From assembly GCF_036588685.1 (NCBI RefSeq), contig NC_086380.1:15562001-15626000 (forward strand): 64,000 nt of DNA, in the 5' to 3' direction. Of the stretch, positions 27 through 26,484 are shown piece after piece; position 1 is the first letter of the stretch, and each line of letters begins with the position of its first letter. The notes beneath the pieces were generated by a model that did not search any database, had not been told where the DNA came from, and was given only the letters and a program-made list of their open reading frames with translations. The DNA comes from Mytilus trossulus (Eukaryota). A program made the position numbers and the translations under genes.

Positions 27-974
27 TCAATTTACTCGTGTTTCAAAAATAGAAACTTTGAAGTATAACAATAGAGCTGGGGTGTAATTCAAATGATAAG
101 ATGTCAACCCTTTTCTAATTCCTTCTGGACACCACGATTCTTTTAGTTTTTTCATTATTTTTTGCGATTTTTTCCGGCAAGTTTCTTTGGTATCAATTCC
201 TTCCAACAATTCCTTTTCACAACTTGCAAACGAATATGTCCAATAAAATGCATCTTTTGCAATATCATTCACTCCAATGGATCTTAATTTTTCAACTTTT
301 TTCTCTGAAGGCCACTGCGATGTAGGTCTTGGCCATCCAAATGTTTTTCTAAAACGTGAGGAGGATTCTATCATAGGCGTTAGATCTACGCTAACGGAAT
401 CGCCTGCAATTTGCGGATGAGTTATTGTGAGCGTTGTCGCTGGTGATTCCGACAACCGTTTGGCATTAACATATTTGCGAATATTTGGTTGATCTTCGAC
501 GGCTCTGCCAACAAGCGATTTAAATCTGCTTTTTACAAAAATTGGTATGATGTCGTCATCAATAGTTAGACAAGCTGGGCCACCATTTATACCCTCTCTG
601 TTCCACTTACGAATAGTACCTGTTGGTGATATAAAACCTTTTCCGATTGGTGGGTCTGGTAATGTCAACTGTTTTCTGACTATTTCATTTTTCTTATCAA
701 ATCCATATTTATGATCCGAATCATCTCTGCACCAATCTAATTGCGGGGTATCTAAAACAACGCTGAAGTCGAATTCATCCGCTCTCGACACTTTTAAATG
801 TGTGTAATAACTTCCGACATTGATTGGCTGACTTTTAAAACGTCTGTCCTTGGTGTGAACATACTGAAGAATATCCTTGACAATAGGTATAACTATCTCT
901 ATGTTTTGACTTGTCTCGTTTTTAATCATTTTCACATGATCATCATAAAACTTATTCAGAAGTGTGTTATCCAT
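27..974 (-). pseudogene. cGAS-like receptor (cGLR/Mab-21 nucleotidyltransferase) copy 1, C-terminally truncated or interrupted
   Basis: ATG of MDNTLL at 974. Intact GSYY, DEFD and SVDL motifs; very similar to the 19912-21078 gene. Homology stops abruptly after LTSYHL (~nt 90) and the frame runs into unrelated sequence, losing the ~80-aa KNILFWECE... helical C-terminus. No GT donor at the junction. Confidence 0.8.
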
Positions 975-1664
975 CTTTACTACCAAGTTTCGGCCAATTT
1001 CTACAGCTAGTTATGACAGGAAGTTAAATTTGGCCTAGATTAGATAGAAATATCAGGACGTTTTCAGTCTATATTTAGGTATCATATAACAAAAGTTATC
1101 AAATAAATCTATTGTTATCTTTTTATCTACTGCATATTTTCGGAAAATCAAATACTTGTATATGCGTTTATATTATATGACTTTGTATTTTCATATTTAG
1201 ATGGTAATAGAAAACTAAACATAACACGCCTAAGCGACTGATCGAATTAATAAATGAATGGGTTGGGTTTTTTTTGAAAATTAAGACTGGATCTTTATAG
1301 TACAGTGATATAGCTTATCATTGAAATAGAGATCTTTACAAATCGGGATAATGTTAGAGATAAGGTGAGAATTATGATTTAAGTTCGAATTCGGGTTAGC
1401 GTAACGGCTAGAATTAATTTTCAACTTAAACATCATTTCGAATAATAGTTAGATATAAACATGAATTAAAACGCAGGTTTTACCAAAAGTTGAGTTAATA
1501 TGCTTCTAGAGTCAAAGCTTTCGTCCAAATTATGTATGAATGAAGAGCTTGATTGCCAGTTTGAGTTACGTGGCGAGTAGCATATCTAATACGAGTTATT
1601 ATACCTATTCCAGTTTAAAATACAGAACTTTAAAAGCAACAGATAATATGATTTTCAAACTTCT

Positions 1665-3660
1665 ATTAAAATTGACAGAATATAGATATCAATAAAGGTT
1701 GACAGAATACAGATTTTCAATTAAAGTTGACAGAATTCATCTGTTCAATTAAAAAGAACAGGTTTAGGATGTTCATTTGAAATTGACAGAATACAGATGT
1801 TAAATTGAAGTTGACAGATTATAGATGTTCAAGATCAAATTATAAGCCTGATACCTTTGATAATCATTTAAGTTGACAGAATATAGATGTCCAATTTAAG
1901 TTGACAGAATAAAGATGTCTAATTAAAGCTGACAGAATATAGATGTCCAATTAAAGTTGACAGAATACAAATGTCCAATCAAAGTTGACAGAATATAGAT
2001 GTCTAATTTAAAAAGTTTATTCACTTCTCTATCTACTGGTTTACTTTCATAAGACAGATTAAGTAGTTACTCTTCAAAGGCGATTGGTCGATAACTATAG
2101 ATGTCCAATTAAAGTTGACAGAATATAAATGTCTAATTAAAGTTGACAGAATAAAGATGTCTAATTTAAAAAGTTTATTCACTTCTCTATCTACTGGTTT
2201 ACTTTCATAAGACAGATTAAGTAGTTACTCTTCAAAGGCGATTGGTCGATAACTATAGATGTCCAATTAAAGTTGACAGAATATAAATGTCTAATTAAAG
2301 TTGACAGAATATAGATGTCTAATTTAATTTGACAGAATATAGATGTCTAATTTTAGTTGACAGAATATAAATGTCTAATCTAAGTTGACAGAATATAGAT
2401 GTCCAATTAAAGTTGACATAATATAGATGTCCAATTAAAGGTGACAGAATATAGATGTCAAATTAAAGTTGACAGAATATATATGTCTAATTTAAGTTGA
2501 CATAATATAGATGTCCAATTAAAGTTGACAGAATATAGATGTCCAATCAAAGTTGACAGAATATAGATGTTCAATTAAAGTTGATTGAATATAGATGTTT
2601 ATTTAGAGTTGACAGAATAAAGATGTCCAATTAGAGTTGACAGAATAAAGATGTCTTATTAAAGTTGACAGAATATAAATGTCTAATTAAAGTTGACAGA
2701 ATAAAGATGTCCAATTAAAGTTGACAGAATACAGATGTCCAATTAAAGTTGACAGAATATAGATGTCTAATTTAAGTTGACAGAATATAGATGTCCAATT
2801 AAAGTTGACATAATATAGATGTACAATTAAATTTGACAGAATATAGATGTCAAATTTAAGTTGACAGAATATAGATTGTTAATTTAAGTTGACAGAATAT
2901 AGATGTTCAATTAAAGTTGACAGAATATAGATGTCCAATCAAAGTTGACAGAATATAGATATCCAATTAAATTTGACATAATATAGATGTCTAATTAAAG
3001 GTGACAGAATATAGATGTCCAATTTAAGTTGACAGAATATAGATGTTCAATTACAGTTGACAGAATATAGATGTCCAATTAGAGTTGACAGAATAAAGAT
3101 GTCTAATTGAAGTTGACAGAATATAAATGTCTAATTTAAGTTGACAGAATATAGATGTCTAATTTAAGTTGACAGAATATAGATGTCTAATTTAAGTTGA
3201 CAGAATATAAATTCAAATTCAAGTTGACAGAATAAAGATGTAAAATAAGAGTTGACAGAATACAGATGTCCAATTAAAGTTGACAGAATATAGATGTCCA
3301 ATTAAAGTTTACAGAATAAAGATGTCCAATTAAAGTTTACAGAATTTAGATTTCCAATTAAAGTTGACAGAATATAGATATCCAATTAAAGTTGACAGAA
3401 TATAGATCTCCAATTAAAGTTGACAGAATATCGATGTTTAGTTAAAGTTGACAGAATAAAGATATCTAATTAATGTTTACAGAATAAAATCCAATTAAAG
3501 TTGACAGAATATAGATGTCTAATTTAAGTTGACAGAATATAGATGTTCAATTAAAGTTGACAAAATATAGATGTTCAATTAAAGTTGACAGAATAAAGAT
3601 GTCTTATTAAAGTTGACAGAATATAAATGTCCAAATAAAATAAAATTCACAGAATAGAGA
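1665..3660. repeat. 28-bp minisatellite array (AGTTGACAGAATATAGATGTCCAATTAA)n, about 60-65 units
   Basis: Direct 28-bp periodicity with no spacers. Interrupted at ~2008-2096 and ~2166-2254 by copies of the sequence found at ~3770-3857. Confidence 0.95.
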
Positions 3661-4219
3661 TGGTTAATTGAATTTCAATAGCTCCGATCTATGTGGTTCT
3701 TCAATGTAAATGATATCACGTAGCAATAATGTAAAAACATATACGATATAGTTCTATGTTCAATTGAATTTAAAAAGTTAATTCACTCTCTATCTACTGG
3801 TGTACTTTAATAAAACATATTAAGTAGTTACTCTTCAAAGGCGATAGGTCGATAACTTATATTTATATATATATATATATATATATATACATTTTGTTTC
3901 CACTCCTTTTGGTTTTTTTTATTTTTAAAGCTTAACAACTTTGTGATTAACTCCGCCCACAGTTCGAGCGCCACTGATGAGATCTATTTCGACGTCACAC
4001 GCGTATTTACCATACACAATTATAAGCCATGTATCTTTGGTATGTATTTGCTCAGTTTTTAGTTACTCTGTGAGTGCTTATTTTTACTGCTGATAAGCCT
4101 CTTGTCGTTTTCCATTGTATTTTCTGCCTTTCATTAATAGACATATGATTTGTGATTGCTTTAGAATATCTCACGTCACTGCAAGTTAATGGCGGTTCCT
4201 TGGACCGATTGGAGCTGAA

Positions 4220-4723
4220 TTCCATAAGTTGATTTACGGCTTCACAAATAAGCTTATTGAATTTCTTTTTAACCATTTTTGGTATAATGTCGTTATCAAA
4301 AGAAAGACAAGACATTAGTGTGGCCTTCATTTATGCCATCTCCGTTCCATTGTTGTATAATATCCGGAAGAGATATCAATCCTTTCCCAATCGGTGGATT
4401 TGCTACTGTTCACACTTTCCTCACTAGCTGATCTTTTGTTTTTATTGAATTCATAGATATAGCTGGAATTATCGTTGTAGCAGTCAAGAGGTGGTACATC
4501 TAATACTACGCTTAATTCAAATTCATCTGCTTTCGATACTTTAAGATGCTTGTTATAAGAACCTACACATAATGGTTTTCTTTTGAATCGTCTGTCCTTG
4601 TTATGTTTATGATCTAGAATTTTTCTTATAATACGTATCACCTCCTTTATGTTTCGTGCAGTCTCGACTTCATTTATTTGGACATGCTCACAATTTAAAC
4701 CTATTCAGAAATGCGTAATCCAT
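4220..4723 (-). pseudogene. cGLR pseudogene (N-terminal half only, frameshifted)
   Basis: ATG at 4723 (MDYAFLNRF), then a frameshift, then EHVQINEVETARNIKEVIRIIRKILD..DRRFKRKPLCVGSYNKHLKVSKADEFELSVVLD. Further frameshifts follow, and CLSFDNDIIPKMVKKKFNKLICEAVNQ matches the paralogues. Homology ends at ~4220. Confidence 0.9.
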
Positions 4724-5470
4724 TTTTCGGTCTATAATTAGAATTGGAAATACAGGTATTTATTTACCTAAATCAACTAAATTTGTTTTTCAATAAGGAT
4801 TAGAGAAGTACATTTATGTAGTATTTCTTTTAAGTTTGTGGCTCCTTTTTTCAAAGGGTGAAGTGACTGTATTCATTTGTTTTTATTATCATATTACAAA
4901 TGATCGGTCTCATTTATTGAATTGCAGATTTCTCTTTTCAAGTTGAAGAAAAAACACGTAAAAATAAAAAAAATCAATCAAAGATACCAGGCATATTATT
5001 TGATTATCCAGATGCTAATTTCGTATACAAAAGACTGATCAGTGGCGCTCAAATCATACACTTAGAAAACCGAATCATAATGAACCTGAAGAACTTAAAA
5101 GATCGTCAGGTCCAAAAACGTAGCACCAAAAAACGATTAAGCTCTGGAGCGAGCTTAACAACACCTTAGCATATCGAATAATTAATCATTTTATAAACTT
5201 TAAAAACACATTCAAATGACATTTCAAAACCACATAAAATTGTTGAATATGGAGCTGGTGATACAATACAGGAAAAAATTCGAACTTGTAAAAACAGCAA
5301 TCTGACTGAAAAAGATATCTGAATTTGTTATGATTATGAGAGTAGGCGAGTTATACCTGTCTGAATCAGCAGTTGCATCAAATCAAAGGGTGTATTTAAC
5401 ATATTAAACATATTTTCATTTTTATTTTTTATTTTATATGAGTAATACAATTAACGGTACCAATTTTCTT

Positions 5471-5514
5471 GCACCAGATGCGCATTTCGACAATACATGT
5501 CTCTCCAGTGATGC
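5471..5514 (-). ncRNA. Hammerhead ribozyme motif, family B, core-mutated (CUGGAGA)
   Basis: Minus strand GCATCA-CTGGAGA-GACA tgtat TGTC-GAAA-T GCGC A-TC-TGGTGC. All helices are intact, but there is an A6G change in the core. Confidence 0.75.
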
Positions 5515-5977
5515 TCGTGGCCAAAACTGGATAATTTGTTTTTAGAGTTGTGCATATCATTTTCCGAGTGGTAGTTAAAATTAGATTTCTAATTGGAGTT
5601 CAATAGTAAGTTAAAGTATAGATTTATATCCATAAGACCATAAGTGAAACTTTGGGTTATAGTTCGAGTTCGTGAAAGAGATTTTCAAGAAGAAAAAGCA
5701 AGATAACAAAAAAAAAGAAATCCGAGGAAAATTATAAACGGAAAGTCCCTTACCAATTTCAAATCGAAAACTCCTACACATCAAACAAATAGATAACAAC
5801 TCTTATATTCCGGACTTTTATAGCTAGCCAAACATCTGACTTGTATAACTGTCGCATAAAATTCCATTATATTGACAACGATGTGAGAACAAAACAACAG
5901 TCATAATAGGAAACAATGTCAAAAATAGAGTACAGCTGTCAACATTGTGCTATAATCTAAATTACTATTGAATTCTT

Positions 5978-6780: not shown

Positions 6781-9700
6781 CCAATCCACTTCGTCCTATT
6801 GGCATATAGACAAAGCACATTAGCAATACGAAATACAACAATACAAAAGGTTACCGTAGTATGATCACACAATGATGGGATGTATAAGAACCGTGCGAGT
6901 CACGTCAAATAGATAATTCGACAGATACTAGTAGACTAAACGGTAAAAGAAACAATCTACAAGGGAAAAAAAAGAATACAACAACACGTTATTAAGATGA
7001 TAAATAAAGTAAGTATCTAGAATCTATACCCCAAGACCATCGTGTATTTTTTTTTAAATATTGATACGGAATATTTATCAACAAGGTATTTGTGTCTTCC
7101 ACTGAACTGTTTTAGAAAAAGGACGAGACATTATTTGACATACACCTGGTTCATTAACTTTCTGCTCAGAAACTAGTGACAAATGACAAAGTCTGAGTAG
7201 CAGCTGCATGCTCCTGAATACTGAATGTATATCACATACACAGATAAAGTTGTTATATTCCTACTAAGGTGGGGGATTATAATTTAGAAATCGTTATAAA
7301 CTATGCTTTCATTTTTTTAGTCTAATCAAATATTGTTCTAAATGTTTAACCTTAAATATTTATATAAATCTAAACTTGTGGGTAAAATTGTCACTACTAT
7401 ATTGTAATCAATCATGAGAGGCGGAATATACCAAACGAATAGGAAAACAGTCATCCCATCAAAATCCGGGGATGGTCACATGTGTACCAGGAAGGGTGGA
7501 CAGATCTTGATTTAAATGTGGCAGCCGCTGTGTTGCTCATGTCAGTACAAACCTGGTTATGAATCTAATTTGGTAGGTCATATTCTAGGAAAACAGGACG
7601 GGATTGCGATATTCCAAAGAAAGCTAACTATTTATGACTTTATAATGGAAGCTACTTTTATGCGAGAAACGATAATTTTCCAGTTACCCAATTTGGTTTA
7701 TCACCAAAATGCGACATATTACCGAATGTATACTTGTTATGTACAACAGAACTGTTTCCACACATGGTACACTCCCGTGATATCGATAACTATGTCCCAA
7801 TAAGTTCGTTCCAATTATTGCAAAAAAAAACATTGGATTCTATTTATTATCGGCAGATCCATTTATTTGATATGGGGAATGTGTCAAAGAGACAACAACC
7901 CGACCATATAACAGAAAACAGCAAATCCATTACGAGTTTTACAACTCGAATATTTTTAACCAAACACAATAACTCAAGTTCTGTAACTCCTCTTAATGTT
8001 AATATTGGCGTCTTTTAAAATATCAAACCTATGACGCAATGTAAGCTCAAGCCAATATTTGCCTTAAACTTTTGAAAGTGTGTTCAGTTTAACAAACTTG
8101 ATTTCTAAATCTCGTAGGAACACACGAGTTTGCAAAATACTCCTCGCATAACGCGATTGAAAACGAGAAGTTCGATTTTTTTAATCGCAGTCTTATTTCG
8201 TGCTTGAGTTAGCTAAATGATAAACACCACAAATTCCATACGAGCCGTAATACTAGTAATAGAACTATATCATGAAATTCATAATTTGTAAACGCAATTT
8301 AAATAGAATGATAAGAGGCATACAATTGATAGTAACAGCATAAACATTACATAATTTTACTAGATGAGCATTTCGGCAATAAATGTCTCTCCAGTGATGC
8401 ATGAGACCAAAACATTTGAATGTTGAAGGGCTGATCAAACCAAGAAGTGCCTAAAGTATCATCAGTAAAATTTATAAACCTGGGTATGGTACACAAGTTT
8501 ATCAATCATCCTGCAGTGTATATCATACTCTTACATTTGTAGTGATAACATTTATTGACGGTCATGGTTAAGTTTTGATGTATATTTCCGAGGCAATAAA
8601 TCTTCAACCTCTGATACATTGAGAGATAAATAAATGACCACATCTGTAGTTAGAGGGACACAGATAGTAGTTTTGAAGGACACAGTTACACAATTTAAAG
8701 CGTATTGTGATGTTTTCTTTTTTTCGATCCAAGGGTATACCAGCACAATATATATATTGTGAGCTATTGGAGTCTTATATGAAAAGAATAATGGGTGTAA
8801 TGGTGCAAAATATTTTACCCTGTAAGTCCTCAATCTATCTTAGCTGAGTTGATATACACATTGCTAACATGAGTATGGTTTATAAACATAACCATTTAAA
8901 ACGGAATACATATTTACGGAATAAACAAATTCATGAATACTATACTTCTTCTTGTATCAAGTAGGGATTATCGATTTCAAAGAGGCAAAGTTTCTAGAAG
9001 TGCATTTATAAACAGTTTTGTTTTTCTGGGTTTACAAACACACGAAACATATGAAACTTAATTACAACTTTTCCTTGTGCATAAATATCATAGCTTCAAA
9101 GTCACCGTGAAACAACTTATTCTTAAGATAAATCCAATACGATTTTTTTTTAAATAAACAAACTGCAAATTAACATATTTTATTTCTTTTCCATTTTAGT
9201 AGTATGTATGAGTTTACGAGACAGCAAGAGATGTGTAACAACAACATAACAAAACAGTATGTGTCAGGAGATCAGCAATCGTTTTTCTAAGAGAAATAAG
9301 AGTTGACGTAATTTTAAATTTAATACCGCCCGAGTGTGTTAAAGGTTTGAATAAATTTAACAGATTCTTTCCAAGATGTTACTGCAACACAAAATTACTC
9401 TAATAACATTAAGATATGAGTAAAGACAACCTTTGACAAGATTCATTACTTAGAGCAAGAGAATTAAAGGACTTGAACTTATTTTTAGCGTAAAAGCCTC
9501 ATTCTGTCAAAACGTGGAAACTTAAACATATATCAAGGAATTGCAATTAAAAATCGATTTTAACTTTACATCGCATTAAAGGCAAAACAGGGGACAATAA
9601 GTAAAACTGTTATAAATTATTTATGTATCGCAGAATGTTACCGGTTGATAACAGCAGAACATCAGAACCTTCTCTGAGCATAGCAATCATGTGTTCTACA

Positions 9701-11045
9701 CTCTAAAGCTAGTATCAGTGCCGAATGAACGTTGGAGTATATATATATTAACTACAGCATCAATAATGCTGTAAACACTTGCCCGTTCAATGCCTTCAAA
9801 ATACACAAATTTAAGTTTTATATGCAAAACTATTAAAAGATACATCTTATTGTTGTTTCATGCCATAAATTAACTAATTGATACTACCCAAATAACCCCA
9901 TACCAGCCGTAATACTGGAACTACGCCAATAAAATCATAACTTGAAAACGCATTTTTAAAGAAATATATGAAGGTTACGGCCAAAGTACTAATTTCAGTG
10001 CAACTGATGTACTTTTCGACAATTAATGTCAATTCAAAAAACATTTGAAATTCCAAAACTTATACAAACGTTGGTGAGCTTATCAAAACCAACAAGTATC
10101 TAAAGTATGAACTTTACAATCATGTTTCTCACTTTTAAAGCTGGGTATGAAACACCCTTCTAATCAATCACCCTACAGTGTAAATCATACACTTAAGTTA
10201 TTACATTTATCAACAGTCTTGGTCAAGTTTTCTGAGGCAAAAAAAATCATCAACCTTTGATTCAGTGAGAGATATAAAATAAATGACCGTCTAGAAGGGC
10301 ATAGATGATATTATTGATATACACGGTTGTACTATATTTAACAAGCGTATTGATGTTTATGTTTCACAAACACCAATGACACATATAACCGTTCAATTGA
10401 ATAAGATTTTATATGTGGATTTCTTAAAATTACTTTTATTTGAATATATATTCAGAATTTTGATGAAGATGTGAAATGATTGCATGCAACTGATACAGAT
10501 ATTCACCGTAGATCAAATGGCGCAGATGTAAGCGGCTATTAGTATTCATATGGCATCCAAAATGAACATATCCCATACAGTAAGGTAAATACATCCTCGA
10601 TATGAAAAACTGTAAAACAAATTATATGAGAAAACCAAGGACTTGGTTCATGCACAAAGCACAAACGAATACGACAACTGAATTACTGGTTCTTGGACAA
10701 GTAAGGAAAGTGGAGCATTTAAACATTTTTTTGAGGAAACCAGCCGTTCCCTCACCTGGGACAGTGGTGCAAACAAGTCTCTACATATCCCAATACGTTG
10801 AAAAAAACAAAACGATCTATGTACGTAAGATCTGAGAGAAATCAGAGTTACTGACAGCTAGTTCAAGGCCAATATCAACTAATAAAAATCAAGTATTTAA
10901 AACTAAAATTCTTTTTGTTAGTTCTTTGCGTCGTTTAATTAGTCAAACATTTTCCAGATTACTTCTCACCAGAAGAATTTCAAAATTTGGTTAGAGGATT
11001 TAAAGAACGATGATGATGCATCGGATGCTTACAAACCTCGGACAA

Positions 11046-11453
11046 TAACATTAACGGTACCAATTTTACTGCACCAGATGCGCATTTGAAATACATGTCT
11101 CTTCAGTGATGCTCGTGGCCAAAATATTTGAAATCCAAAGCTTATATAAAAGATGAAGAGCTTTAATCCAAAATGTCCAAAAGTATAGCCAAATCCGTGA
11201 AAGGAATCAGAGCTTTGCATGAGGGAGATACATTCCTTAATTTATAATATTGCTACGTTTTGTAACAGCAAATTTTAACAACACAAAAAAAAATCCGTAT
11301 TTTTATGCTGGTGATACCCTCGGGGACTAATAGTCCACCAGCACGGGCATCGACCCAGTAGTAGTAATAACATTAACGGTACCAATGTTACTGCACCAGA
11401 TGCGTATTTCGACAGTACTTGTCTCTTCAGTGATGCTCGTCGCCAAAATATTT
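11046..11453 (-). mobile_element. Retrozyme/PLE-like non-autonomous element, ~1.3-mer with terminal hammerhead-containing direct repeats
   Basis: Two ~90-bp direct repeats 322 bp apart (hammerheads at 11071 and 11393), flanked by GGACAA at 11040-11045 and 11454-11459 (TSD). Inserted in a gag relic. Confidence 0.8.
11393..11436 (-). ncRNA. Minimal type I hammerhead ribozyme, family B, intact core
   Basis: Minus strand GCATCA-CTGAAGA-GACA agtac TGTC-GAAA-T acgc A-TC/TGGTGC: stem I 6 bp, CUGANGA, stem II 4 bp, GAAA, 2-bp stem III, AUC cleavage triplet. Confidence 0.85.
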
Positions 11454-11471
11454 GGACAACACTTACGTGAG

Positions 11472-11995
11472 TGATACTTACTCAGCCAAATACGATATAT
11501 GGAAATATGAAGTATTATGCTTAGTCAAAAACCGTTATACTCACGAAACTAACAAGATGGCAATAAGAAAGAAACTAAAGGGAAATGCTGAAGTAATATC
11601 AATGAAATAATGAGAAAATGCAACAATAGATTATACTATCGATAGGACGGTTAGTATCTTTGGTTCTGTTTTTCCAGTAGACGCGCTGCTTGGGCAATTT
11701 TATACTGCAAGACAACAAGAAGTGAAGACGAAGATGACGCATCATGGGGATGTCGCCTAGCAGATATTTTACGAAAAGCAACAGACTGAGGGAAAGTTAA
11801 ACAAGGGGATACACACAGTATGCTTATATCTACATTTGAAGGACTTAGACCTGACATCAAGAACATTGGAAGATACGAATTGGATTTCGTTAAAGAGTTT
11901 GACTAAATGTTGAAAACATTTCCAATTATAGAGAAGGAAAACAATCTTGGACAAAAGAAAGAAACCACAGCTGAAAACAAGTCCTTTACTACTAA
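11472..11995 (+). pseudogene. Ty3/Gypsy gag (PNMA-like capsid) relic, copy 1
   Basis: Reads YDIWKYEVLCL..MAIRKKLKGNAEVISM..SIFGSV..ALLGQFYTARQ..EDDASWGCRLADILRKA..MLISTFEGLRPDIK with stops and frameshifts. Confidence 0.75.
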
Positions 11996-12480
11996 TAATT
12001 AAATTATTTGAAGGTTCGATGGTTTTACACGGATCCCATCGTGATTTCCGATCTTTAAGCACAATGTTACCATAAAATTTAGGATGTGAAATACCGATTT
12101 TAATAATAAAATGGACAATGGAAATGGGTATTGAGTTTCCCTTTAGAAACTGAAATATCTCAAGCTAGAAAAGGACAACTACTGCTTTTTATGTTAGATT
12201 TAGTTAAAGTAAGTTTCTTTGGGTACATTTTGGTACTATATCTACAGAACTCTGTTAAAAATAGCAGACTGAACATGTTTCTTACCTTAGATATAAATCA
12301 GCGCACATTAAATGAATGTAGCATAAAGTCGTTATAAACAGTCTGAGAATGTCATAACTTTGTGTAATGACAAAGTATAGGGGTCAACAGAATGATGTAT
12401 CTTAAATGTTCACAACTATGTTTAGTTATGTTTTGTTTATTAATAACAAAATTAATGTAAGTACCAGTACAACAACAATT

Positions 12481-12772
12481 AATAGTTATCAAAAGTACCA
12501 GGATTATAATTTAATACGCCAGACGCGCGTTTCGTCTAAATAAGACTCATTGGTGACGCTCAGATCAAAACAGTTAAAAGCCAAACAAATGTTGAAGAGC
12601 ATTGAGATCGACCCAAAATTCCAAAAAGTTGTGCCAAATACGGCCAAGGTAATGTACTTCTGGAGGTAAGAAAATCCTTAGTTTTTTTAAAAATTCAAAG
12701 TTTTGTTAACAGAAAATTTACAAAAATTACCATATAATTCATATTCATGTCAACACCGAAGTGCTAACTTCT
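12481..12772 (-). mobile_element. Family A hammerhead-bearing repeat; ribozyme at 12516-12559 is core-mutated (CCAAUGA)
   Basis: Minus strand GCGTCA-CCAATGA-GTCT tattt AGAC-GAAA-C GCGC G-TC-TGGCGT. Paralogue of the intact copy at 26441. Confidence 0.8.
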
Positions 12773-13026
12773 AGATTTGTTTATAGTCTGCTTGAATCAA
12801 ATAGTTTTTTAGCAAGGGCAGATGATCATAAACTCAGTCAGCAATCCATAACTTCTATAAATGATTAAATTTCATCAAATATACCAGGCTGACAATTTGG
12901 TATGGCATGATTAATGTAGATTAAAACTTAAAACTTCTTACTTTTTGGTTTAATTACGGTTTATTATATTGTGTTCATCCTTCGCGATGTTTATTTAACA
13001 GGTACCTAATATAACATATTCTGTTA

Positions 13027-13280: not shown

Positions 13281-14269
13281 AACAGAACACAAAAACATCT
13301 TCTATCTACGAACACATTGATTGATTTTAGTGTCTGACGTCAGAATTTTTTAATACGTCACATCAATTTGTCGTTCAAAGTGCATACAAACAGTTTTAAA
13401 ATTTTTATAGGCAATGAAGGCATACAGGGTTAAAAAATTAAAAGTATGTAAGAATAAATTACAGAAATAGACCGAGATTCAAACTAGTCCAAAAGTTATA
13501 GGTAGAATTTATGAGAATCCAAAAATAGTTAATTCCACTACGCGATTGAATTATTTTGACGTTTGTGGTTCAACGTATATAGTAATTCATAATAGAAATA
13601 TATCATAATGGCATATAATAGACCAATAAAAGGAATAAAGGAATCTAGTAATGTATGATAATTATTTTAATACCGATATAAAACTATCAGTTATTTAGAG
13701 TGAATTTCAAGTCCCTAGTTTTTGGAAACCTAAGTGTGTTTACATGTTTAGTCGTTCCAATAACTATGATCGTACCGTCTACATTGATGTTATCCCATTA
13801 GATTTCTTACATGTTAATAAAAAATAGTTAATCCGATAATAGCCTCTAAAAGGCTACAACATTTTCAGTTCATACATAAACAATATAGGAGATGCCATTA
13901 CAAGGAGGATTGTGATAAGGGGAATATTATTATATTTAAAGGCGCACAATTCTACATAAAGCAGATAACCAAAAGGCCGTGTCTATAGCATTATACATAT
14001 ATGCATAACAGATCCACTTCTTTATGAATTTGGAAGCAAATTGAGAAATAGGCAGATTATAAATAATGGCTAACAAGAAGGCCATCAAAATTATTCCTTT
14101 ATCAAATTGCATTGAAGTAAGGATTATGAATTTGTTTTTTGATGTGCGCTCACAGACAATTTTTCTCTAGGTTTGCAAATAATTCACTAACATAATTATA
14201 TGCAACGTGCATCGAAGAAGGCGAAGGTCCAAAACTGTTAGTAACAACATAAACTGTTACCACTTAACT

Positions 14270-15810
14270 ACGACAACAGAGCATTTTGACGATATCTGTC
14301 GTTTCAGTGATACTTGAAGCAAAAAGTATTTAATCAAAAACCTAATGCAAACGGTGGAGAACTGATAAAAACCAAAAAGGATCTAAAAGTATAATCTGAT
14401 TTTTACTTATAGAGCTAGGTATACATCACCCTTATAATCAATCACCTACATTGGTGATCATTAGTGATAACATTTATAAACAGCCTTGGTCAAGTTTGGT
14501 GTATATTCCTGAGGCAAAATATAATCAAGGTTTAATTCAGTAAGAGATAAATAAATGACCACATCTGCGGTTAGAGGGTCAGAGTTGTTTAAAGGACACG
14601 GTTATAGTATGTTTTACAAGCGTATTTATGTTTATGTTTCACAAACATCAATGGTACATACTTATATAAGTTTTTCATTTGATTTTTAACTGTATTTCAA
14701 TAAGATTTATATGTGGTTTACAATTGATAATTTTCATTTAAATATATATTGAAATACCGATGAAGATGTTATATGATTTCGTGCAATTCATACAGCTACT
14801 CACTCTAAACCAAATGACGCTAGATGTAAAAAAATAAATAAACTATAGGTCACCATACGGCATTCAACAATGAGCTAAATACATACAGTAAACATAAGAT
14901 GTCGCTAATATGACAAATCCTAAAATCTTTCAGATGAGTAAACCAACAACTTAATTTATGTCAAAAGCTCAAACGAAAAACCAACTAGACAGCAACTAGA
15001 CAACTACTAGAAAACAACAGAACAACAGGTTCCTGACTTGAGATAGGCATCTGAAGCATGTGGCGCTTTTAAACATGTTTGAGAGTAACAAGTCTAGATC
15101 AACATAATGGTATACCGTACAAAATATCAGCTGGAAAAGGCTTGGCCCATTGAACGACTCAACGCACTCACTAAAACTAACAAAAAAAATTTAATCTCAG
15201 ATACATGAAGTTAAATTCAGTTGTATTATTGACTTTTAACTAGCTGTTGGTAATTGCGATTTCTCTTAGATCTTTACGTAAAGTGTCTTGTTGTGAGATG
15301 TATATATACGCTGCCTCGATATGTCTGTGTTTTCAAAAGATTTTTATAATTGAATTGATTAATATTTTTCATGTCCCGGTCATTTATAGCCGATTATACA
15401 GTATGCGTTTAACTAATTGTTGAAGGCCGTACAGCTGCATTTAACTGTTTACAATAACTTCATTTGCACCCAATCATGCTACATCTCCTATTTTTTATAA
15501 ACACACTGAGTATGGATGCAAGTAATGGAAAACTAGTTCAAGGCCAATTACAACTAATAACTAAAGCATGTTTCTCAGCCGCAAATATATATCAGTATAC
15601 ATTCAATGTAAGCGTTGAATCTATTAGTCAGGGACCGAGGATCAACACCTCAGTCATTAATCCATAATTTCTATAAATGATTAATTTTCATCAACAAAAC
15701 CAGGCTAGCAGTTTGGTACGGCAGAATTAAAGTAGAATGCAACTTAAGTTAATTGCTCACTTTCGGTTTAAATTCGTTTATACTTTTGTATATAAAGTGT
15801 TCCTCCTTCG
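14270..15810 (+). repeat. Older, diverged third copy of the local duplicated unit
   Basis: 14340-15080 matches 10070-10740 (and 8400-8710). 15525-15810 matches 10850-10900 joined to 12830-12990, without the gag/retrozyme insert. Confidence 0.75.
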
Positions 15811-16307: not shown

Positions 16308-17420
16308 ACACAATTTTTGTGTTGGCATCTATTATGATTTTATTAACGAAAAACACAAATGGTATTGGCAACCAACGAAAACCATCGTTAGCATACTTTT
16401 TTGCTTCGGATTGTCACAAAACAAAATGTTGCGGGGTTTGTTGTCTGCAAAATCGGTTGACTTGGATGAATAATTGAATTTTTTTATTGCCCCATGAAAA
16501 AGGGTAAGTGGGGAAAGTGTAAGGGTTAGGCTTGGCCTTGATTTAAAATGATACATTCATCTGACCATTTTTCAATAATGGGGATGGGATTTACATGTTT
16601 AACGAGCCTATTCCTAATACATTAACGAAATGTTCACTAAATTGATATATCTTAAAGAATTTCTTATAGTTGGGTTTAGATTTTGTCCGTTCATCATTTT
16701 CCAAAACCCAAAGTAAGAAGATTATAATTGGAAACTAAACCAGTTATAAAAGAAAGAAAAACAACAATAAAAACTGCTTACAAAACACTGCAAAAAAGTT
16801 ATTGATTACCACAAAAGAGCACAACTAGATGATCGAAATTGAACATATGTGCTAAAACAGGGCCAATACTTCCCATTTTACTACTCTGGTTACAACTGTT
16901 AAAATCCATAGATAAATCATAAATGTTACTAAGGCACGAGACAGAGGCGTATTTGAAGTTCTTTCAATCATTATGTATTGTCAAACTTTATTATAAGAAT
17001 TAAAATCAAAATCAGATCAAACTCAAGCGTTCTTATTGTGAAAGCACTTAAGGAATACCTTCTCAAGTCCTATCATATTGAATTATTTTTGTACTTTTGT
17101 TGTTTCATCCATTTGGACAATTAACAGCCCTTTCTAAACAAAATAACCTCAGCCCTACATTGAATGAAATCCTGAATCTGCACAAGAACTTGTTCTATAT
17201 TCCAGTACCCTTGGGGCATTTTGAAAATCCATTTTCTCAATCTAAATCTAGCGATATTAAAAACTGTTGCCTAAGTATGGCCTTTGTTATATTACATCTA
17301 TTTTTAGAACTGAAAATCCCTTTTCTATTTTATATATTCGTTTCTTGAAAATGATATTGATACATTTTGAAGGAGAACAAGGTATTACTTTCATTATTCC
17401 CATAAGGTTTACATGTAAAT

Positions 17421-18614
17421 ATGGATAATACAATGTTGGATACATTTTATAAAAATAATATTAAATTGACAAAAGACGAAACAAAGGACATTCTTGATTT
17501 TGTCAAACCTAAAATCGATTATATTGTTCAGTACATTCATGAGAGGGACAAGCGGTTCAAACTTCGCCCATTGAATGTCGGGAGTTACTATTCCCGTCTT
17601 AAAGTATCTCGGGCAGACGAGTTTGATTATAGTGTAGTGTTAGATTCAGGACCATATTTGGTTTGGACAACCCAGACACCGGCTTTTTCTGCATGTGATA
17701 CAATCCTTGGAAATACGGAGGTGGTTAGAACATCAAGTTCACTGCCGTCAGCACCCGTTGGGAAATGCGTTACTAAACTTTCAAGAAGTATACCACAGTG
17801 GAATAAAAAACGTATGAATGAAGGATCTGACTGCTTGACAATTGGCGATCACATTATTCCGATGAAAGTGAAAAAAAGATTTCAAGCACTCGTCATTGAA
17901 GCTATTAAACAACCACTTATAAGTCGATATGTTGATGCAAAGAGATCATCCGGATCACCTGCCGTTACATTGACTATAGCTGATCCCGATGCTGATGATG
18001 TAGAACCAATAAGTGTAGACCTTGCACCTCTTATTGAAGCACACCTTCCATTCAAACCAGAGTTTAATTGGCCTAGACCACAGGCCAGATGGCCTTCTAG
18101 TACACAGATTAAAGATATACAAGATGAAGGAATACACTTGGTTGCTAAAGATCCTGAATATTGGACTTTATCATTCGTCACATGTGAAAAAAAATTGTTA
18201 GAAAGCACGGAAACAACGGGAACATGCCGAAATAAAAGTCATCGAATAATGAAAAAACTCTGTGAAATTTGGTGTCCAGAAGGAACAAAACAGGTTCTCA
18301 ACTCGTACCATATCAAAAACATTTATTTCTGGGAATGTGAATATCATCCGGATGACTGGGAGTGGACTAAAAAACAGCTAGCCGTCAGGGTTGAGTCTAT
18401 GTGTGATTTGCTTATTAAATATATAGATGATAGGAACCTTCCTGTTTATTTCCACACAGGGATCAATTTGTTTAAAAACTACTTGACGGACCAACAAGTG
18501 TTTGACAATGTTCAAAAGGAAATTCGTACTTTTTGGGAAAACCCAGAGGACTATCTTAGGGACTACATGGAAGAGGAAGAGGAAGAAGAAGAAGATGATG
18601 ATGATTTTTACTGA
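17421..18614 (+). CDS. cGAS-like receptor (cGLR/Mab-21 family nucleotidyltransferase), 397 aa, acidic C-terminal tail
   Basis: Single ORF with NVGSYY activation loop, DEFD metal-binding acids, SVDL third acid, W-LSF..EK, SYHIKN..FW, LP-YF...NLF. Ends EEEEEEEEDDDDFY. Confidence 0.93.
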   Translation: MDNTMLDTFYKNNIKLTKDETKDILDFVKPKIDYIVQYIHERDKRFKLRPLNVGSYYSRLKVSRADEFDYSVVLDSGPYLVWTTQTPAFSACDTILGNTEVVRTSSSLPSAPVGKCVTKLSRSIPQWNKKRMNEGSDCLTIGDHIIPMKVKKRFQALVIEAIKQPLISRYVDAKRSSGSPAVTLTIADPDADDVEPISVDLAPLIEAHLPFKPEFNWPRPQARWPSSTQIKDIQDEGIHLVAKDPEYWTLSFVTCEKKLLESTETTGTCRNKSHRIMKKLCEIWCPEGTKQVLNSYHIKNIYFWECEYHPDDWEWTKKQLAVRVESMCDLLIKYIDDRNLPVYFHTGINLFKNYLTDQQVFDNVQKEIRTFWENPEDYLRDYMEEEEEEEEDDDDFY

Positions 18615-19911: not shown

Positions 19912-21078
19912 TCAATAATGCCTCTGCAAGTAACTAACAGGATCCCGCAAAAATTTTTGAATGTTTCTAGCAACTTGATTAAGAACGTCAATGTCCTTTG
20001 TAGAAAATAAATTCACTCGAGGATGAAAATATTGAGGTACATTTTCTTCCCGTATACATTTAAGCAAGCGGTCACACATTGACCTGAGTCTAGTGGCCAG
20101 TTTATCATCAGACCATTCATAATCATGTGAGTGGTCCTCACACTCCCAAAAGAGGATATTCTTCAAATGGTAAGATGTCAAGTCTTGCTTCATTCCTTCT
20201 GGACACCATGCTTCTTTTAGCTTTTTCATGATCCTTTGTGATTTTTTCCGACAAGTTCCATTGGCATCAATACCTTCCAACAATTCCTTTTCACAGCTTG
20301 CATAAGAATATGTCCAATAAAATGGATCTTTTGCAATATCATGAAATCCCATAGACTTTAATTTCTCGACTTTTTCATTAGAAGGCCACTGTGTTTCTTG
20401 TCTTGGCCACATGAAACTCTCTTCAAAAGGCGTGCATGATTCTATCAAAGGCGTTAAATCAACACTTACAGAATCGCCTGCAATTTGTGGATGAGTAATT
20501 CTGAGCGTTGTCGCTGGTGAATCTGATAATCTTTTAGCATCAACATATTTGCGAATATGTGGTCGATTTACTGCTTCGCCAACAAGTGATTTGAATCTGC
20601 GTTTAACCTTAATTGGTATAATGTCAACATCAATTGTAAGACATGCTGGGCCGTCATTAATCCCCTCTCTATTCCATTTAGGTATGGTATTTGAAAGATA
20701 TATAAAACCTTTCCCGACTGGTGGGTCTGGTAATGTTAAACCTTTTCTGACTACTTCATTGTTCTCGTCGAATCCATAACTATGAGAAGAGCTTTTACTG
20801 CTCCAAACAAGATGTGGTGTATCCAAAACAACACTAAAATCGAATTCATCAGCTCTCGACACTTTTAGGTGTGTATAATAGCTTCCAACATTCAATGGTT
20901 GACATTTGAATCGTCGGTCCTGGCTATGTACATACTGCAGGATATCCTCGACAATAGGCATAACTACCTTAATGTTTTGTCTTGTCTCGTCTCTTATCAT
21001 TTTCACATGATCATCATAAAACCTATTCAGAAGTGTGTTGTCCATTATTCCACTACCACTAGTAGGATAGTTTGACAT
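19912..21078 (-). CDS. cGAS-like receptor (cGLR/Mab-21 family nucleotidyltransferase), 377-388 aa
   Basis: Single intact ORF. First ATG at 21078 (MSNYPT); the paralogue-conserved ATG (MDNTLL) is at 21045. Motifs GSYY, DEFD, SVDL, SYHLKNILFW, VPQYFHPRVNLF. Confidence 0.94.
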   Translation of the reverse strand: MSNYPTSGSGIMDNTLLNRFYDDHVKMIRDETRQNIKVVMPIVEDILQYVHSQDRRFKCQPLNVGSYYTHLKVSRADEFDFSVVLDTPHLVWSSKSSSHSYGFDENNEVVRKGLTLPDPPVGKGFIYLSNTIPKWNREGINDGPACLTIDVDIIPIKVKRRFKSLVGEAVNRPHIRKYVDAKRLSDSPATTLRITHPQIAGDSVSVDLTPLIESCTPFEESFMWPRQETQWPSNEKVEKLKSMGFHDIAKDPFYWTYSYASCEKELLEGIDANGTCRKKSQRIMKKLKEAWCPEGMKQDLTSYHLKNILFWECEDHSHDYEWSDDKLATRLRSMCDRLLKCIREENVPQYFHPRVNLFSTKDIDVLNQVARNIQKFLRDPVSYLQRHY

Positions 21079-21483
21079 TCGGTTTAGCAGTTCAGTTGTG
21101 GTAAGAATAGATTTAAACACGAAGAAATTTCCAGTCTATATTTAGATTAAAAAAATTACAGGTACTATATTTACCTATTGTATATTTTCAGAAAATCAGC
21201 TAAATTTATTTGCATTCATTTCATTTCTATATAACATAGTACAAAAGTTTAGTTCGCAATAATTGTTGAGCTTTTCTTGAGAAAGTTCAGAAAATCAAAA
21301 CTACTAAACGAATTGATATATGAATACTTACAAAAATAAATAAAGACCTGGATCTTTGTTATAAAGAAGAGTTTGGGATCGAGATCGTTCCAGTTCAAGT
21401 AAGATCAAAGTGTTAGTAAAAGTTCGAATTGGGATGAAAGTTATGATCAGATTTTAAATTTGAGTATAACATCGGATCTAAGT

Positions 21484-21716
21484 AATAGTTATCAAAGGTA
21501 CCAGGATTATAATTTAGTACGCCAGACGCGCGTTTCGTCTACATAAGACTCATCAGTGAGTTTCATATCAAAATATTTCTAAAGCCAAACAGGTACAAAA
21601 CTTTTGTAAACAGGGAAATTTATAAAAATGACCATTTATTGATATGCATGTCAACACCGAAGTGTGGACTATTAGGCTGGTGATACCCTCGGGGACGAAA
21701 CGTCCACCAGCAGTGG
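21484..21716 (-). mobile_element. Family A hammerhead-bearing repeat (ribozyme 21519-21560, intact core, shortened stem I), internally deleted
   Basis: Minus strand TCA-CTGATGA-GTCT tatgt AGAC-GAAA-C GCGC G-TC-TGGCGT. Lies ~400 bp upstream of, and on the same strand as, the minus-strand cGLR. Confidence 0.8.
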
Positions 21717-24700
21717 TAGGAGTTCGAGTCTACCATCAGCTAAGGCTTAAGGTATACTGCCGGAAGCGTATATGTGTGTGGTTTACAGTGCAATTTCATG
21801 TGTTATTACAAGTCCATTACAAGTTTTACAACTCGAATATTTTTAACCAAACACAATAACCAAAGTTCTGCAACTCGTCTTAATGCTAATATTGGCGCCT
21901 TTTCAATATCAGACTTTAGACGTGATGAAGGGTCGAGCCAATATTTGCATTAAACTTGTTTTAGTGTGGTCGGTTTCACAAACTTGATTTCTAAATCTCG
22001 TATATCGGGGTGTAAGACCACTCACGTGCTTGCAAAATACTCCTCGCAAAACGCGATTGGAAACGAGAATTTTTTAATTGCAGTCTTATTTCGTGCTTGA
22101 ATTAGCTAATTGATAAACACCATCAATTTCATACAAGTCGTAATACTAGTAAGCAGTAGAATCATGTCATGAAAATCATAATTTGTAAACGCAATTTAAA
22201 GAGAAAGATAATAGGCATACAATTGTTAGCAACAGCATAAACATTACATAACTTCACTAGATGAGCATTTCGACAATTAATTTCTCTTCAGTAGTGCATG
22301 TGGCCAAAAAATTTGAAAGAGCTGATCAAATCAAGAAGTGCCTAAAGTATAATGAGTCTTTTCTTATACAGCTGGATAAGAAACACCAGTTTATCAAGCA
22401 TTCTGCAGTGTACATCATACTCTTACTTTTGAAGTGATAACATTTATTGACAGTCATGGTCAAGTTTTGATGTATATTTCCGAGGCAATAAATCATCAGC
22501 GTTTGATACATTGAGAGATAAATAAATGACCACATCTGTAGTTAGAGGGTCACCGATAGTAGTTTTGAAGGACACAGTTACACAATGTAAAGCGTATTGT
22601 GATGTTTTTCTTCTTTTCGTATAAATCAAGGGTATAACAGTACAATATATATAGCTCATAGTATATACGAGTCTAAATTGAAAACTACGTTCAAACCTAT
22701 GATTGCGTTGGATAAAAACCGCAATTTTTATACGTGTGCATGTAAAACAAATTTCGTTGTAGAAGGGTCTAAAAACAGCACAAACAACATTTTCCAAAAA
22801 AAAAGAAAGTGAAAAAGTATATTTAAACAAAACGCATTTGACTAACAGGTCGAACAACTGATGTTCTTTAACCCTGCTGACTGCCTTTGGCGATTGCCAA
22901 ATAAAATTGATCACAAGATGTAACAAAATGGATCTCAATATATATTTAATACTAAACAGGAACAAATTTTTAACTTGTTACCACGATGTTATGCCACAAA
23001 CATACGGTGTCAATATTTTTTTTATTTTTTTTTTTCACAATATATATATATACATATCGTGAGCTATTGGAGTCTTGGAGAATAATGGGTGTAATGGCGC
23101 AAAATATTTTACCCTGTAAGTTCTCAATCTATCTTAGATGAGTTGGTATACACATTGCTAAGGAGTAAGACGATGGAATGTCATGAGTATGGTTTATAAA
23201 CATATCCATTTAAAACGAAATACATATTTACGGAATAATCAAATTCATGAATACAATACTTCTTCTTGTATCAAGTAGGGATTGTCGATTTCAAAGAGGC
23301 AAAGTTTCTAGAAATACATTTATAAACAGTTTTATTTTTCTGAGTTTGCAAACACACGAAACATCTGAAACTTAATTAAAGAACTCGTACTTATCTTTAA
23401 CGTAAAAGCCTCATTTTTTCAAAACGTTGAAACTAAAACATAAATCAAGGTATCAATTTTAAAATGTTTAACGCCTTATCACAAGGGATAATAAATAAAA
23501 CTATTATAAATAATACCTATAGCAGAATGTTAGCAGTTGATAAAAACATAACAAAAGAACCTTCTCTGACCATATCAATCGTGTGTCCTACACTCTATAG
23601 CTAGTATCAGTGCCGAATGAACGTTGGGGTATATATTGCATGCAGCATTAATAATGCAGCAAACACTGTGCAATGCCTTTACAAATTTAAGATTTCTCTG
23701 CAAACTATTAAAAGATACATCGATCTCGTTGTTGTTTCATGCCATAAATAAGCTAATTGGTATTAACCCAACCCCACAACGGCTGTAATAATGGAACTAT
23801 AAAAAATAAAATCATAACTCGTAAACGCATTTTTAAAGAAATATGTAACGGGTACGGCCAAAGTACTAATTTCACTGCAATAAAATCAACGGTACCAATT
23901 TTGCAACATATGTACTTTTCGACAATTAATTTCAAAAAACCTTTGAAATTCCAAAACTTATACAAACGTTGGTAAGCTTATCAAAACCAACAAGGATCTA
24001 AAGTATTAACTTTACAATAATTTTTCTCACTTATAAAGCTGGGTATGAAACACCCTTCTAATCAATCACCCTACAGTGTAAATTATACACTTAAGTTAGT
24101 GGTCATTTGTTATTACATTTATCAACAACAGTCTTGGTCAAGTTTTGATGTGTACTTCAGAGGCAAAAAAATCATCAAGCTTTGATATAGTGAGAGATAT
24201 AAAGTAAATGACCGCCTAGAAGGGCATAGATGATATTATTGATATACACGGTTGTACTATATTTAACAAGCGTATTGATGTTTATGTTTCACAAACACCA
24301 ATGACACATATAACCGTTCAATTGAATAAGATTTTATATGTGGATTTCTTAAAATTACTTTTATTTGAATATATATTCAGAATTTTGATGAAGATGTGAA
24401 ATGATTGCATGCGACTGATACAGATATTCACCGTAGATCAAATGGCGCAGATGTAAGCAGCTATAAGTAGTCATATGACATCAAAAATAAACATATCTCA
24501 TACAGTAAGCTAAATACATCCTCGATATGGAAAATTGTAAAAAAAATCATATGAGAAAACCAAGGACTTTGTTCATGCACAACTCACAAACGACCACGAC
24601 AACTGAATTACAGTTTCTTGGACAAGAAGAGAAAGAATGGAGTGGAGCATTTAAACATTTTTGCGAGTAAATCAGCCGTTCCCTAACCTGGGACAGTGAT

Positions 24701-24970
24701 GCAAACAGGTCTATGTATATCCCAATTCTTTGAAGAAAAAACACTATGTACGTAAAAACTGAGAGAAATCAGAGTTACTGACAGCTAGTTCAAGGCCAAT
24801 ATCAACTAATACAAATCAAGTATTTAAAACTTAAAGTCTTTTTGCTAGTTTTTTGAGTGATTAATTAGTAAAACATTTTCCAGGTTACTTCTCACCAGAA
24901 CAATTTCAAACTTCGTAAGAGGAATAAAAGGACGATGATGATGCATTGGATGAGTACATACCTTGGACAA

Positions 24971-25369
24971 TAATATTAACGGAACCAATTATCCTGCACC
25001 AGATGCGCATTTGACAATACATGTCTCTTCAGTGATGGTCGTGGCCAAAATATTTGAAATCCAAAGCTTATATAAAAGATGAAGAGCTATAATCCAAACG
25101 GTTCAAAGAGTATAGCCCAATCTGTGAAAGGAATCCGAGCTTTTCATGAGGCATAATTTATAATAATTTTTACATTTTGTAACAGCAAATTTTAATAACA
25201 CAGACAAAAATCCGTAGTATTTTCATGCCAGTACCGTACTGGCTACTGGGATAGTGATACCCTCGGGGACTAACAGTACACCAGCAGAACTATCGACCCA
25301 GTGGTAGTAGTTACATTAACGGTACCAATTGTACATGTCTCTTCAGTGATGCTCGTGGTCAAAATATTT
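24971..25369 (-). mobile_element. Duplicate of the 1.3-mer retrozyme-like element; both hammerheads damaged
   Basis: Flanked by (TT)GGACAA. The 24996-25038 motif lacks G12, and the second motif (~25330-25352) has lost GAAA and stem III. Confidence 0.75.
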
Positions 25370-25388
25370 GGACAACAGTTACGTGAGT

Positions 25389-25925
25389 GATACATACTCA
25401 GCTAAATACGATATATGGAGGTATGAAGTATTATGCTTAGTCAAAAGCCGTTATACTCACGAAACTATCAAGATGGCAATAAGAAAGTAACTAAAGGGAA
25501 ATGCTGCAGTAATATCAATGAGATTATGAGAAAATGCAACAATAGATTAGACTATCGATAGTACGGATAGTATCTTTGGTTCGGTTTTTTCAGTAGAAGC
25601 GCTGCTTGGGCAATTTTATACTGCAAGACAACAAGAAGTGAAGACGAAGATGACGAAGATGACGCATCATGGGGATGTCGCCTAGAAGATATTTTACGAA
25701 AAGCAACATACAGAGGGAAAGTTAAACAAGAGGATACAAACAGTATGCTTATATCTACATTTGAAGGACTTAGACCTGACATCAAGAACATTGGAAGATA
25801 CGAAATGGATTCATTTAAAGAGTTTGAACTAATGTTGAAAACATTTCCAAATTTAGAGAAGGAAAACAATCTTGGACAAAAGAAAGAAACCACAGCTGAA
25901 AATAAGTCCTTTACTACTAATATTT
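25389..25925 (+). pseudogene. Ty3/Gypsy gag (PNMA-like capsid) relic, copy 2
   Basis: DTYSAKYDIWRYEVLCLVKSRYTHETIKMAIRK*LKGNAAVISMRL*ENATID*TIDSTDSIFGSVFSVEALLGQFYTARQQE/fs/EDDASWGCRLEDILRKATYRGKVKQEDTNSMLISTFEGLRPDIKNIGRYEMDSFKEFELMLK. Confidence 0.8.
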
Positions 25926-26440
25926 AAATTATTTGAAGGTTCGATCGATTTACACGGATCCCATCGTGATTTCCGATCTTTAAGCACAATGTTACCATAA
26001 AATTTAGGATGTGAAATACCGATTTTAATAATAAAATGGACATTGGAAATGGGTATTGAGTTTCCCTTTAGAAACTGAAATATGTCAAGCTAGAAAAGGA
26101 CAACTACTGCTGTTTATGTTAGATTTAGTTAAAGTAAGTTTCTTTGGGTACATTTTGGTAGTATATCTACAGAACTCTGTTAAAAATAGCAGACTGAACA
26201 TGTTTCTTACCTTAGATATAAATCAGCACACATTAAATGAATGTAGCATAAAGTCGTTATAAACAGTCTGAGATTGCCATAACTTTGTGTAATGACAAAG
26301 TATAGGGATCAACAGAATGATGTATCTTAAATTTTCACAACTATATTTAGTTATGTTTTGTTTATTAATAACAAAATTGATGTAAGTACCAGTACAACAA
26401 CAATTAATAGTTATCAAAAGTACCAGGATTATAATTTAAT

Positions 26441-26484
26441 ACGCCAGACGCGCGTTTCGTCTACACAAGACTCATCAGTGACGC
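26441..26484 (-). ncRNA. Minimal type I hammerhead ribozyme, family A, fully intact (within repeat 26406-26693)
   Basis: Minus strand GCGTCA-CTGATGA-GTCT tgtgt AGAC-GAAA-C GCGC G-TC/TGGCGT. Palindromic GCGC loop III and GUC cleavage site. Confidence 0.9.

Follow-up and report, generated by a model that had tools for sequence, protein, structure and literature searches.

A 411-nt, partly doubled insert at 11044-11454 of the window—the whole 64-kb stretch of DNA analysed here—is very probably a dead copy of a mussel non-LTR retrozyme; a borrowed enzyme likely inserted it by target-primed reverse transcription, with a circular or multimeric RNA as template. Its RNA sense is on the minus strand and it comprises 1.28 units. 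That it is a non-LTR retrozyme we hold with high confidence. That it belongs to the published Mytilus retrozyme family also appears very likely, the match being one of genus, unit length and two-family pattern, made to the published descriptions and not to the clone sequences (MN642551-76). In Mytilus galloprovincialis, ~5000 type I hammerheads in two similar families, with repeats of 350-390 bp, have been reported (PMC7229834; Cervera and de la Pena 2020). The kind of element is already known, and the circles of the family have very likely been shown already; as a locus, the insert is an ordinary, decayed copy, one among thousands, and its value is that of a readable insertion event.

Two raw RNA runs (X24 and X21) and two contig sets were aligned to the stretch at 84% likeness; the sequencing runs are from other samples, which may lack the insert's locus. 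Pattern scans of metagenome contigs yielded one real locus (L001), and further pattern scans yielded none; L002, on a viral contig, was rejected as a chance match of only 18 nt. L001 is an independent locus on a marine metagenome contig. Its unit is 350 nt, it spans 1.35 units and both of its cores are intact; at aligned bases it is 94.6% identical to the insert. The features of the insert, whose family has the cleavage triplet AUC, and of its surroundings are listed in Table 1.

Table 1. Coordinates in the window of the insert's parts, its host gene and related copies
Feature	Position	Strand	Remarks
Independent 86-nt family fragment	5441-5526	-	One hammerhead (core CUGGAGA) plus 36 nt; without target-site duplication
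Decayed PNMA-type gag (Ty3/gypsy-like), 5' part, left of insert	10931-11041	+	Homolog alignment
GGACAA, left copy of likely target-site duplication	11040-11045	+	Final AA also fits element end
RNA 3' end of insert, 33 nt after cleavage site	11044-11076	-	Common to many family copies
Downstream (3') type I hammerhead, broken	11071-11112	-	Lacks G12 and a stem II G; C17 at 11077
Unit, cleavage site to cleavage site, 322 nt	11077-11398	-	~26 nt less at 11306/11307 than L001 and the duplicate
GC-rich structured module	11303-11359	.	Common to GUC sister family; fold z -2.6 on minus strand
Upstream (5') type I hammerhead	11393-11436	-	Core intact (CUGAAGA, GAAA, AUC); C17 at 11399
GGACAA, right copy of likely target-site duplication	11454-11459	+	Initial G also fits element end
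Decayed gag, continuation with stops and frameshift	11473-11984	+	Homolog alignment
Duplicate of insert	24969-25370	-	Unit 340 nt; both hammerheads broken

Anatomy, fixed 3' end and template

The insert is noncoding (longest ATG frame 59 aa), has a GC content of 37.7%, below 50%, and is laid out without an LTR-centre-LTR arrangement; the surrounding window is AT-rich animal DNA (GC 27-36%). Its direct repeats, 11044-11130 and 11366-11454, are 92% identical over 89 columns. The preliminary description of this DNA had reported two hammerhead-bearing direct repeats 322 nt apart, and both are indeed present on the minus strand with their cleavage sites at that spacing; measured at the stem I anchor the spacing is 324 nt because the left copy is 2 nt shorter. 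The ~320 nt that had been given as the length of the RNA does not stand: the family length is ~350 nt, as in L001 and approximately in the duplicate, and 322 nt is private to the window copy because of a deletion of ~26 nt that both others have kept. Units of 322, 340 and 350 nt, arranged as 1.28- and 1.35-mers, are short tandem or partial-tandem units in the retrozyme range (150-450 bp).

The RNA 3' end lies 33, 33, 36 and 33 nt past the cleavage site in four copies, which represent three independent events. Ends at 11044 are among the six loose ends listed for each run in all four runs (165, 193, 238 and 229 records), a set of 24 beside which there are 1134 more, and the actual ends could be a few bases beyond those listed; the sequence beyond these ends is unrelated and AT-rich (agreement 0.39-0.50). 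The 5' ends vary, lying 55 nt past the second cut in the insert and further in L001, and the family copy at 5441 is a short fragment. The polarity given by a fixed 3' end and variable 5' ends is consistent with target-primed reverse transcription that begins internally. Copies of the GUC sister family end ~45 nt past the cut (three copies, two of which are duplicates), and the sister copy at 33402 ends earlier.

Retrozyme class and origin from a longer-than-unit cDNA by target-primed insertion, both put forward in the preliminary description, fit this anatomy and are also the published model for the non-LTR retrozymes of animals, Mytilus among them (PMC7229834). In that work, tandem transcripts self-cleave and gather mostly as circles, closed probably by a host ligase, and longer-than-unit cDNAs made from circles with Penelope-like helpers are proposed (PMC7229834). 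For the insert, tandem transcripts would likewise have self-cleaved and been ligated into ~350-nt circles; a helper reverse transcriptase, most plausibly Penelope-like, would have started ~33 nt 3' of the cleavage site, passed that site twice while copying and ended 55 nt beyond the second passage, and integration at a staggered nick would have left a 6-nt duplication.

Because the insert spans the cleavage site twice, its template would have been a circle or an uncut multimer, not a cut linear monomer. There is a substantial, if minority, chance that the 1.28-mer derives from an uncut linear multimer of a tandem array, with no circle involved; this would still be target-primed reverse transcription and is a variant of the explanation preferred here, not exclusive of it. 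The joint between units (a step back of 320 nt) is found in 10 X21 reads with 8 different starts and also in DNA contigs (X16), the latter in favour of this route. Moreover, uncut RNA is the main substrate of a lizard Penelope-like element, whose insertion is unaffected by ribozyme mutations (PMC11167929), and the published Mytilus ribozyme is slow (kobs ~0.1 per min; PMC7229834). Against this stands the report that, of the retrozyme RNA detected in Mytilus tissues, 75-95% or more was circular (PMC7229834). Sequence differences between the repeats, at 5 of the 87 aligned bases in the insert and 6 of 87 in L001, do not separate the two routes. Junction reads had been proposed earlier as a check; reads across the unit joint were recovered, but since the joint is also in DNA it signifies tandem or circular units and is no proof of circles. 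Read ends do not pile up at the cleavage site.

Penelope-like elements are suspected, unproven helpers of animal retrozymes (PMC7229834), which, according to a 2020 review, lack a conserved motif pointing to a helper (PMC7761336). The fixed internal 3' end, together with a module common to two families, provides a handle on the helper's identity; of the pieces folded, the module alone exceeds its shuffles. We suggest tentatively, and as a proposal that may well prove wrong, that a Penelope-like reverse transcriptase starts on the circular RNA at a fixed internal site, 33-36 nt past the cut (~45 nt in the sister family) and not at the cut end, and that the module of ~55 nt lying just 3' of this site, which the two families share though otherwise diverged, is its binding signal. 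If true, this would identify the helper that animal retrozymes depend on and delimit a minimal RNA on which to test it. The lizard Penelope-like enzyme, which cleaves AT-rich DNA, initiates internally in vitro at sites that coincide with the ends of genomic copies (PMC11167929). These sites are 111-118 nt inside the ORF and the ribozyme cut is at +26, so that initiation is ~85-92 nt past the cut (PMC11167929), as compared with 33-36 nt for the mussel copies. A fixed 3' end 33-36 nt past the cut was not found in print, and may be given in the supplements of the Mytilus report (S4, S5 and S9 of PMC7229834), bioRxiv supplements or subscription papers. No Penelope-like gene is among the 17 frames of the window that were scanned; the one RVT_1 match in this set lies 31 kb away.

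Target site and host gene

The word GGACAA, previously described as duplicated at both ends of the insert, is seen there, and the occurrences at 11040 and 11454 are the only ones in 10901-11600. At least 6 nt are shared at 2.7% of 3000 random junction pairs (p ~0.03), and three of the six letters—the G at the right and the AA at the left—equally match the element's own ends. GGACAA is thus likely a target-site duplication, a sign that is weak on its own. In L001 (the right junction of which is possibly a misjoin), the 5441 fragment and five sister-family end pairs, the best shared junction word is only 3 nt. The preliminary description had expected other copies to have both target-site duplications and partial-tandem structure; the latter is found in L001, with its 1.35 units, whereas a duplication is likely at the insert (6 nt, p ~0.03) and absent from two other family copies. 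There is no empty site among the joints listed (15 of 152), and three pattern matches to gag DNA in viral contigs yielded no confirmed match and no uninterrupted copy.

The host gene was identified from homologs (3 of 14 candidates, all named Mytilus, 68-77% identical), which make Mytilus very likely as the host organism. One of these, P0003, has PNMA and zf-CCHC (zinc-knuckle) domains, and the designation of the gag as PNMA-type is based on it; the short gag pieces themselves had no Pfam match. Residues 27-52 of P0003 align left of the insert and residues 60-142 right of it, and the insertion was therefore into a once continuous gene. The claim that removing the insert rejoins the gag frame is accordingly borne out for the order of the pieces in the homolog alignment and not for the frame. 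Across the insertion site, the homologs have 7 residues (21 nt), whereas the count in the window is 17 nt if GGACAA is taken once and 23 nt if it is taken twice; a stop at 11468-11470 follows the site, and the gag has further stops and frameshifts.

These same observations give what credit there is to an unlikely alternative, by which events at the DNA level (repair of a break, or conversion by a satellite array) placed the insert and GGACAA is a coincidence of microhomology: half of its letters match the element ends, the chance of a shared 6-mer is 2.7%, 23 nt with both words is as near to the homologs' 21 as 17 nt with one, and the other copies are without a duplication. What speaks against it is that one end is fixed and the other variable across independent copies, a polarity that reverse transcription would produce but DNA capture would not.

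Ribozymes, duplication and transcription

The upstream motif is a canonical type I hammerhead with helices of 6, 4 and 2 pairs and an open helix I; its loop 3 reads ACGC, the family form being the palindrome GCGC. Positions (G12, C17, A6) follow what we take to be the customary hammerhead numbering, and cuts are predicted after 11399 and after 11077. This motif is among the four found by a core-plus-stem scan of the window, where 0.05 were expected from 40 shuffles. Comparison supports the hammerhead structure: when 10 natural motifs from the two families are aligned, 97.5% of 118 cells can pair (17-42% in slid controls). Of the 12 pairs, 5 have both partners replaced between the AUC and GUC families, although the rows are related and represent few independent events. 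Rfam recognizes neither hammerhead of the insert (E<=10 on 11000-11500); its hits in the window are four GUC motifs of the sister family only, and none of the AUC family. In folding, neither the isolated motifs (z +0.55 to +1.3) nor the 322-nt unit, whether linear (z -1.27) or circular (z -0.64), surpass their shuffles. On the opposite strand of the insert and of L001, a relaxed scan revealed no credible hammerhead core; a viroid-like RNA with ribozymes in both polarities was rejected for want of an intact opposite-strand ribozyme. A relic-like hammerhead lies on the opposite strand of a sister-family copy (21677-21704, +; A6 changed, GAAA, GUC) inside the shared module, where the AUC-family module has other letters in place of GAAA; it may be due to chance or an old second ribozyme.

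Loss of G12 from the downstream ribozyme and from its duplicate at 24996, as noted earlier, is confirmed by alignment; the further stem II G is missing from the former only. Family reads have the two bases missing from the window copy in 221 of 274 and 220 of 276 cases (X24) and in 379 of 478 and 382 of 397 (X21). In the duplicate, G12 is lost in one hammerhead, and an internal deletion removes GAAA and the cleavage site of the other. The two copies lie in a segmental duplication (9462-13026 versus 23374-26955) that is 87.5% identical, with 92 and 95% in the flanks and 90% in the insert (aligned bases). Because the duplicate shares both junctions and the deletion, it is most parsimonious that insertion and G12 loss came before the duplication, as had been concluded before for the G12 loss; the window copy would have lost its ~26 nt last, after the 3' ribozyme had lost G12 and the region had been duplicated. 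For a wider duplicated pair (7922-13026 versus 21809-26955, offset ~13.9 kb, identity 85-95% depending on the part), an alternative origin would be a divergent haplotype set in tandem. Older, degraded family fragments, mostly from around the ribozyme end, are located at 8327-8420, 9986-10099, 14236-14393, 22252-22318 and 23879-23926 (67-84% identical to L001).

The family is transcribed. The X24 run has 1067 matching records (of 12.7 million) and the X21 run 3096 (of 8.7 million); these counts overstate the AUC family, since many of the records belong to the sister family, with its loose ends at 11307 and 11359, or to a repeat at 10804-10926. Among X21 first mates, plus exceeds minus over the whole insert by about 1.5 to 6 to 1 (551:165 at 11173-11213), which, given the usual library rule, points to RNA mainly of the ribozyme (minus) strand; X24 has no strand bias and is unstranded. 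Few reads are 99% alike (14 of 1067 in X24 and 16 of 3096 in X21). RNA depth is 0 over 10927-11008 and 11460-11746, and neither RNA run has gag-flank reads or displays ribozyme-strand transcription of the insert's own locus. The family is also abundant in DNA: in the contig sets, 20,622 and 15,071 contigs match the stretch, with most depth over the insert; these tallies include the sister family and another repeat and are not copy numbers. Transcription of the whole unit by RNA polymerase III was set aside, there being five runs of 4-6 U on the ribozyme strand of L001; box-like words in the unit were judged by eye against what we take to be the RNA polymerase III consensus.

With core bases of one motif lost, the window copy itself would probably not release a circle, and a transcript through its locus is predicted to be cut once, not twice. 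Release of a ~320-nt RNA, as formerly envisaged, is thus not to be expected from a copy that keeps one intact core in a family with a unit of ~350 nt. Very improbably, the locus could yield a 322-nt monomer or circle even so, if the intact core cut the downstream site as a double hammerhead and its own site as a monomer. Dimeric folds are available to tandem hammerheads whose helix III is short (PMC4209133). In the insert, the downstream cleavage triplet remains intact, as does the 3' strand of stem I, and, by inspection, seven of eight pairs of an extended helix III could still form. However, the intact motif has lost the palindrome of its loop 3, the cuts would need a fixed order, the gag flanks lack RNA depth, 99%-alike reads are few, and family reads have bases that are absent from the window copy.

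Known systems and neighbouring sequences

The insert shares with the M. galloprovincialis non-LTR retrozymes a mussel host, type I hammerheads, two ribozyme families and a low-GC, noncoding unit of ~350 nt, as well as transcription and the proposed route (PMC7229834); a duplication of >4 bp, when one is present, is a further trait of those retrozymes and a likely one of the insert. It differs in being a 1.28-mer with one broken ribozyme and a 322-nt unit, and its fixed 3' end is not described in the Results or Discussion of that report (PMC7229834). For the Mytilus retrozymes, in vitro cleavage, circles of ~350-400 nt (by northern blot and RT-PCR) and cloned circles have been documented, and a construct is designated Mg353 (PMC7229834).

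With Penelope-like elements (e.g. Poseidon of Anolis) the insert has in common a type I hammerhead, partial tandems, variable 5' ends, an internal 3' end and AT-rich flanks (PMC11167929, PMC8557442); unlike them, it has no reverse transcriptase or GIY-YIG frame. An autonomous Penelope-like element was rejected because a frame of >60 aa is present in neither of the two copies inspected. That the insert is the orphan end (pseudo-LTR) of such an element and not a retrozyme is very improbable: partial tandems, 5' truncation and a tail of 30-40 bp are Penelope-like features (PMC8557442), but the unit here closes on itself at 340-350 nt without a frame of >60 aa and the ribozyme is canonical, not of the minimal kind.

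Plant LTR retrozymes are likewise non-autonomous and hammerhead-bearing and spread via circular RNA; their type III hammerheads lie in LTRs of ~350 bp on either side of a unique centre, and they further possess a primer-binding site, a polypurine tract and duplications of 4 bp (PMC7761336). The repeats of the insert, in contrast, are an 89-nt overlap of a tandem unit, and this class was rejected on account of the open helix I, the likely 6-nt duplication and the absence of a unique centre between full repeats.

The sister family, with a GUC triplet, is represented at 12477-12763, 21480-21716 and 26402-26696 (minus strand) and at 33365-33464 (plus strand), with Rfam Hammerhead_1 matches at 12516, 21519, 26441 and 33402 and weaker matches near 4977, 16237 and 30365. 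It is 66.5% identical to the AUC family over 266 columns, much of the unit being homologous, and the best-supported loose read ends in X21 come from it. The repeat at 10804-10926, in the left flank of the insert, is another high-copy repeat that is transcribed; related sequences occur at 15175-15280, 15533 and 53952-54015.

A fragment of the 3' part of a LINE-type reverse transcriptase gene lies at 42329-43634 (-) in two frames (RVT_1, E 6e-10) and adjoins a 76-bp tandem array at 43617-44433; by its motifs it resembles the end of an L2/CR1-type LINE and not a Penelope-like element. Additional tandem arrays are found at 1664-3900, 27114-27510, 28579-28935, 44646-47233 and 59688-60172, with periods of 28, 26, 21, 81-82 and 25-26 nt, respectively. 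An imperfect inverted repeat of ~190 nt at 29231-29419, with weak miRNA-family matches far below the gathering score, is likely a MITE-type hairpin. No tRNA genes are present in the window. An intron-free cluster of Mab-21 nucleotidyltransferase genes, which we presume to be cGAS-like, comprises 27-1010 (-), 4229-4629 (-, broken), 17406-18614 (+) and 19912-21135 (-), with members 48-57% identical to each other. Finally, a frame with quinolinate phosphoribosyltransferase domains is located at 40539-41168 (+), and a 629-aa open frame without a Pfam match at 57167-59056 (+).
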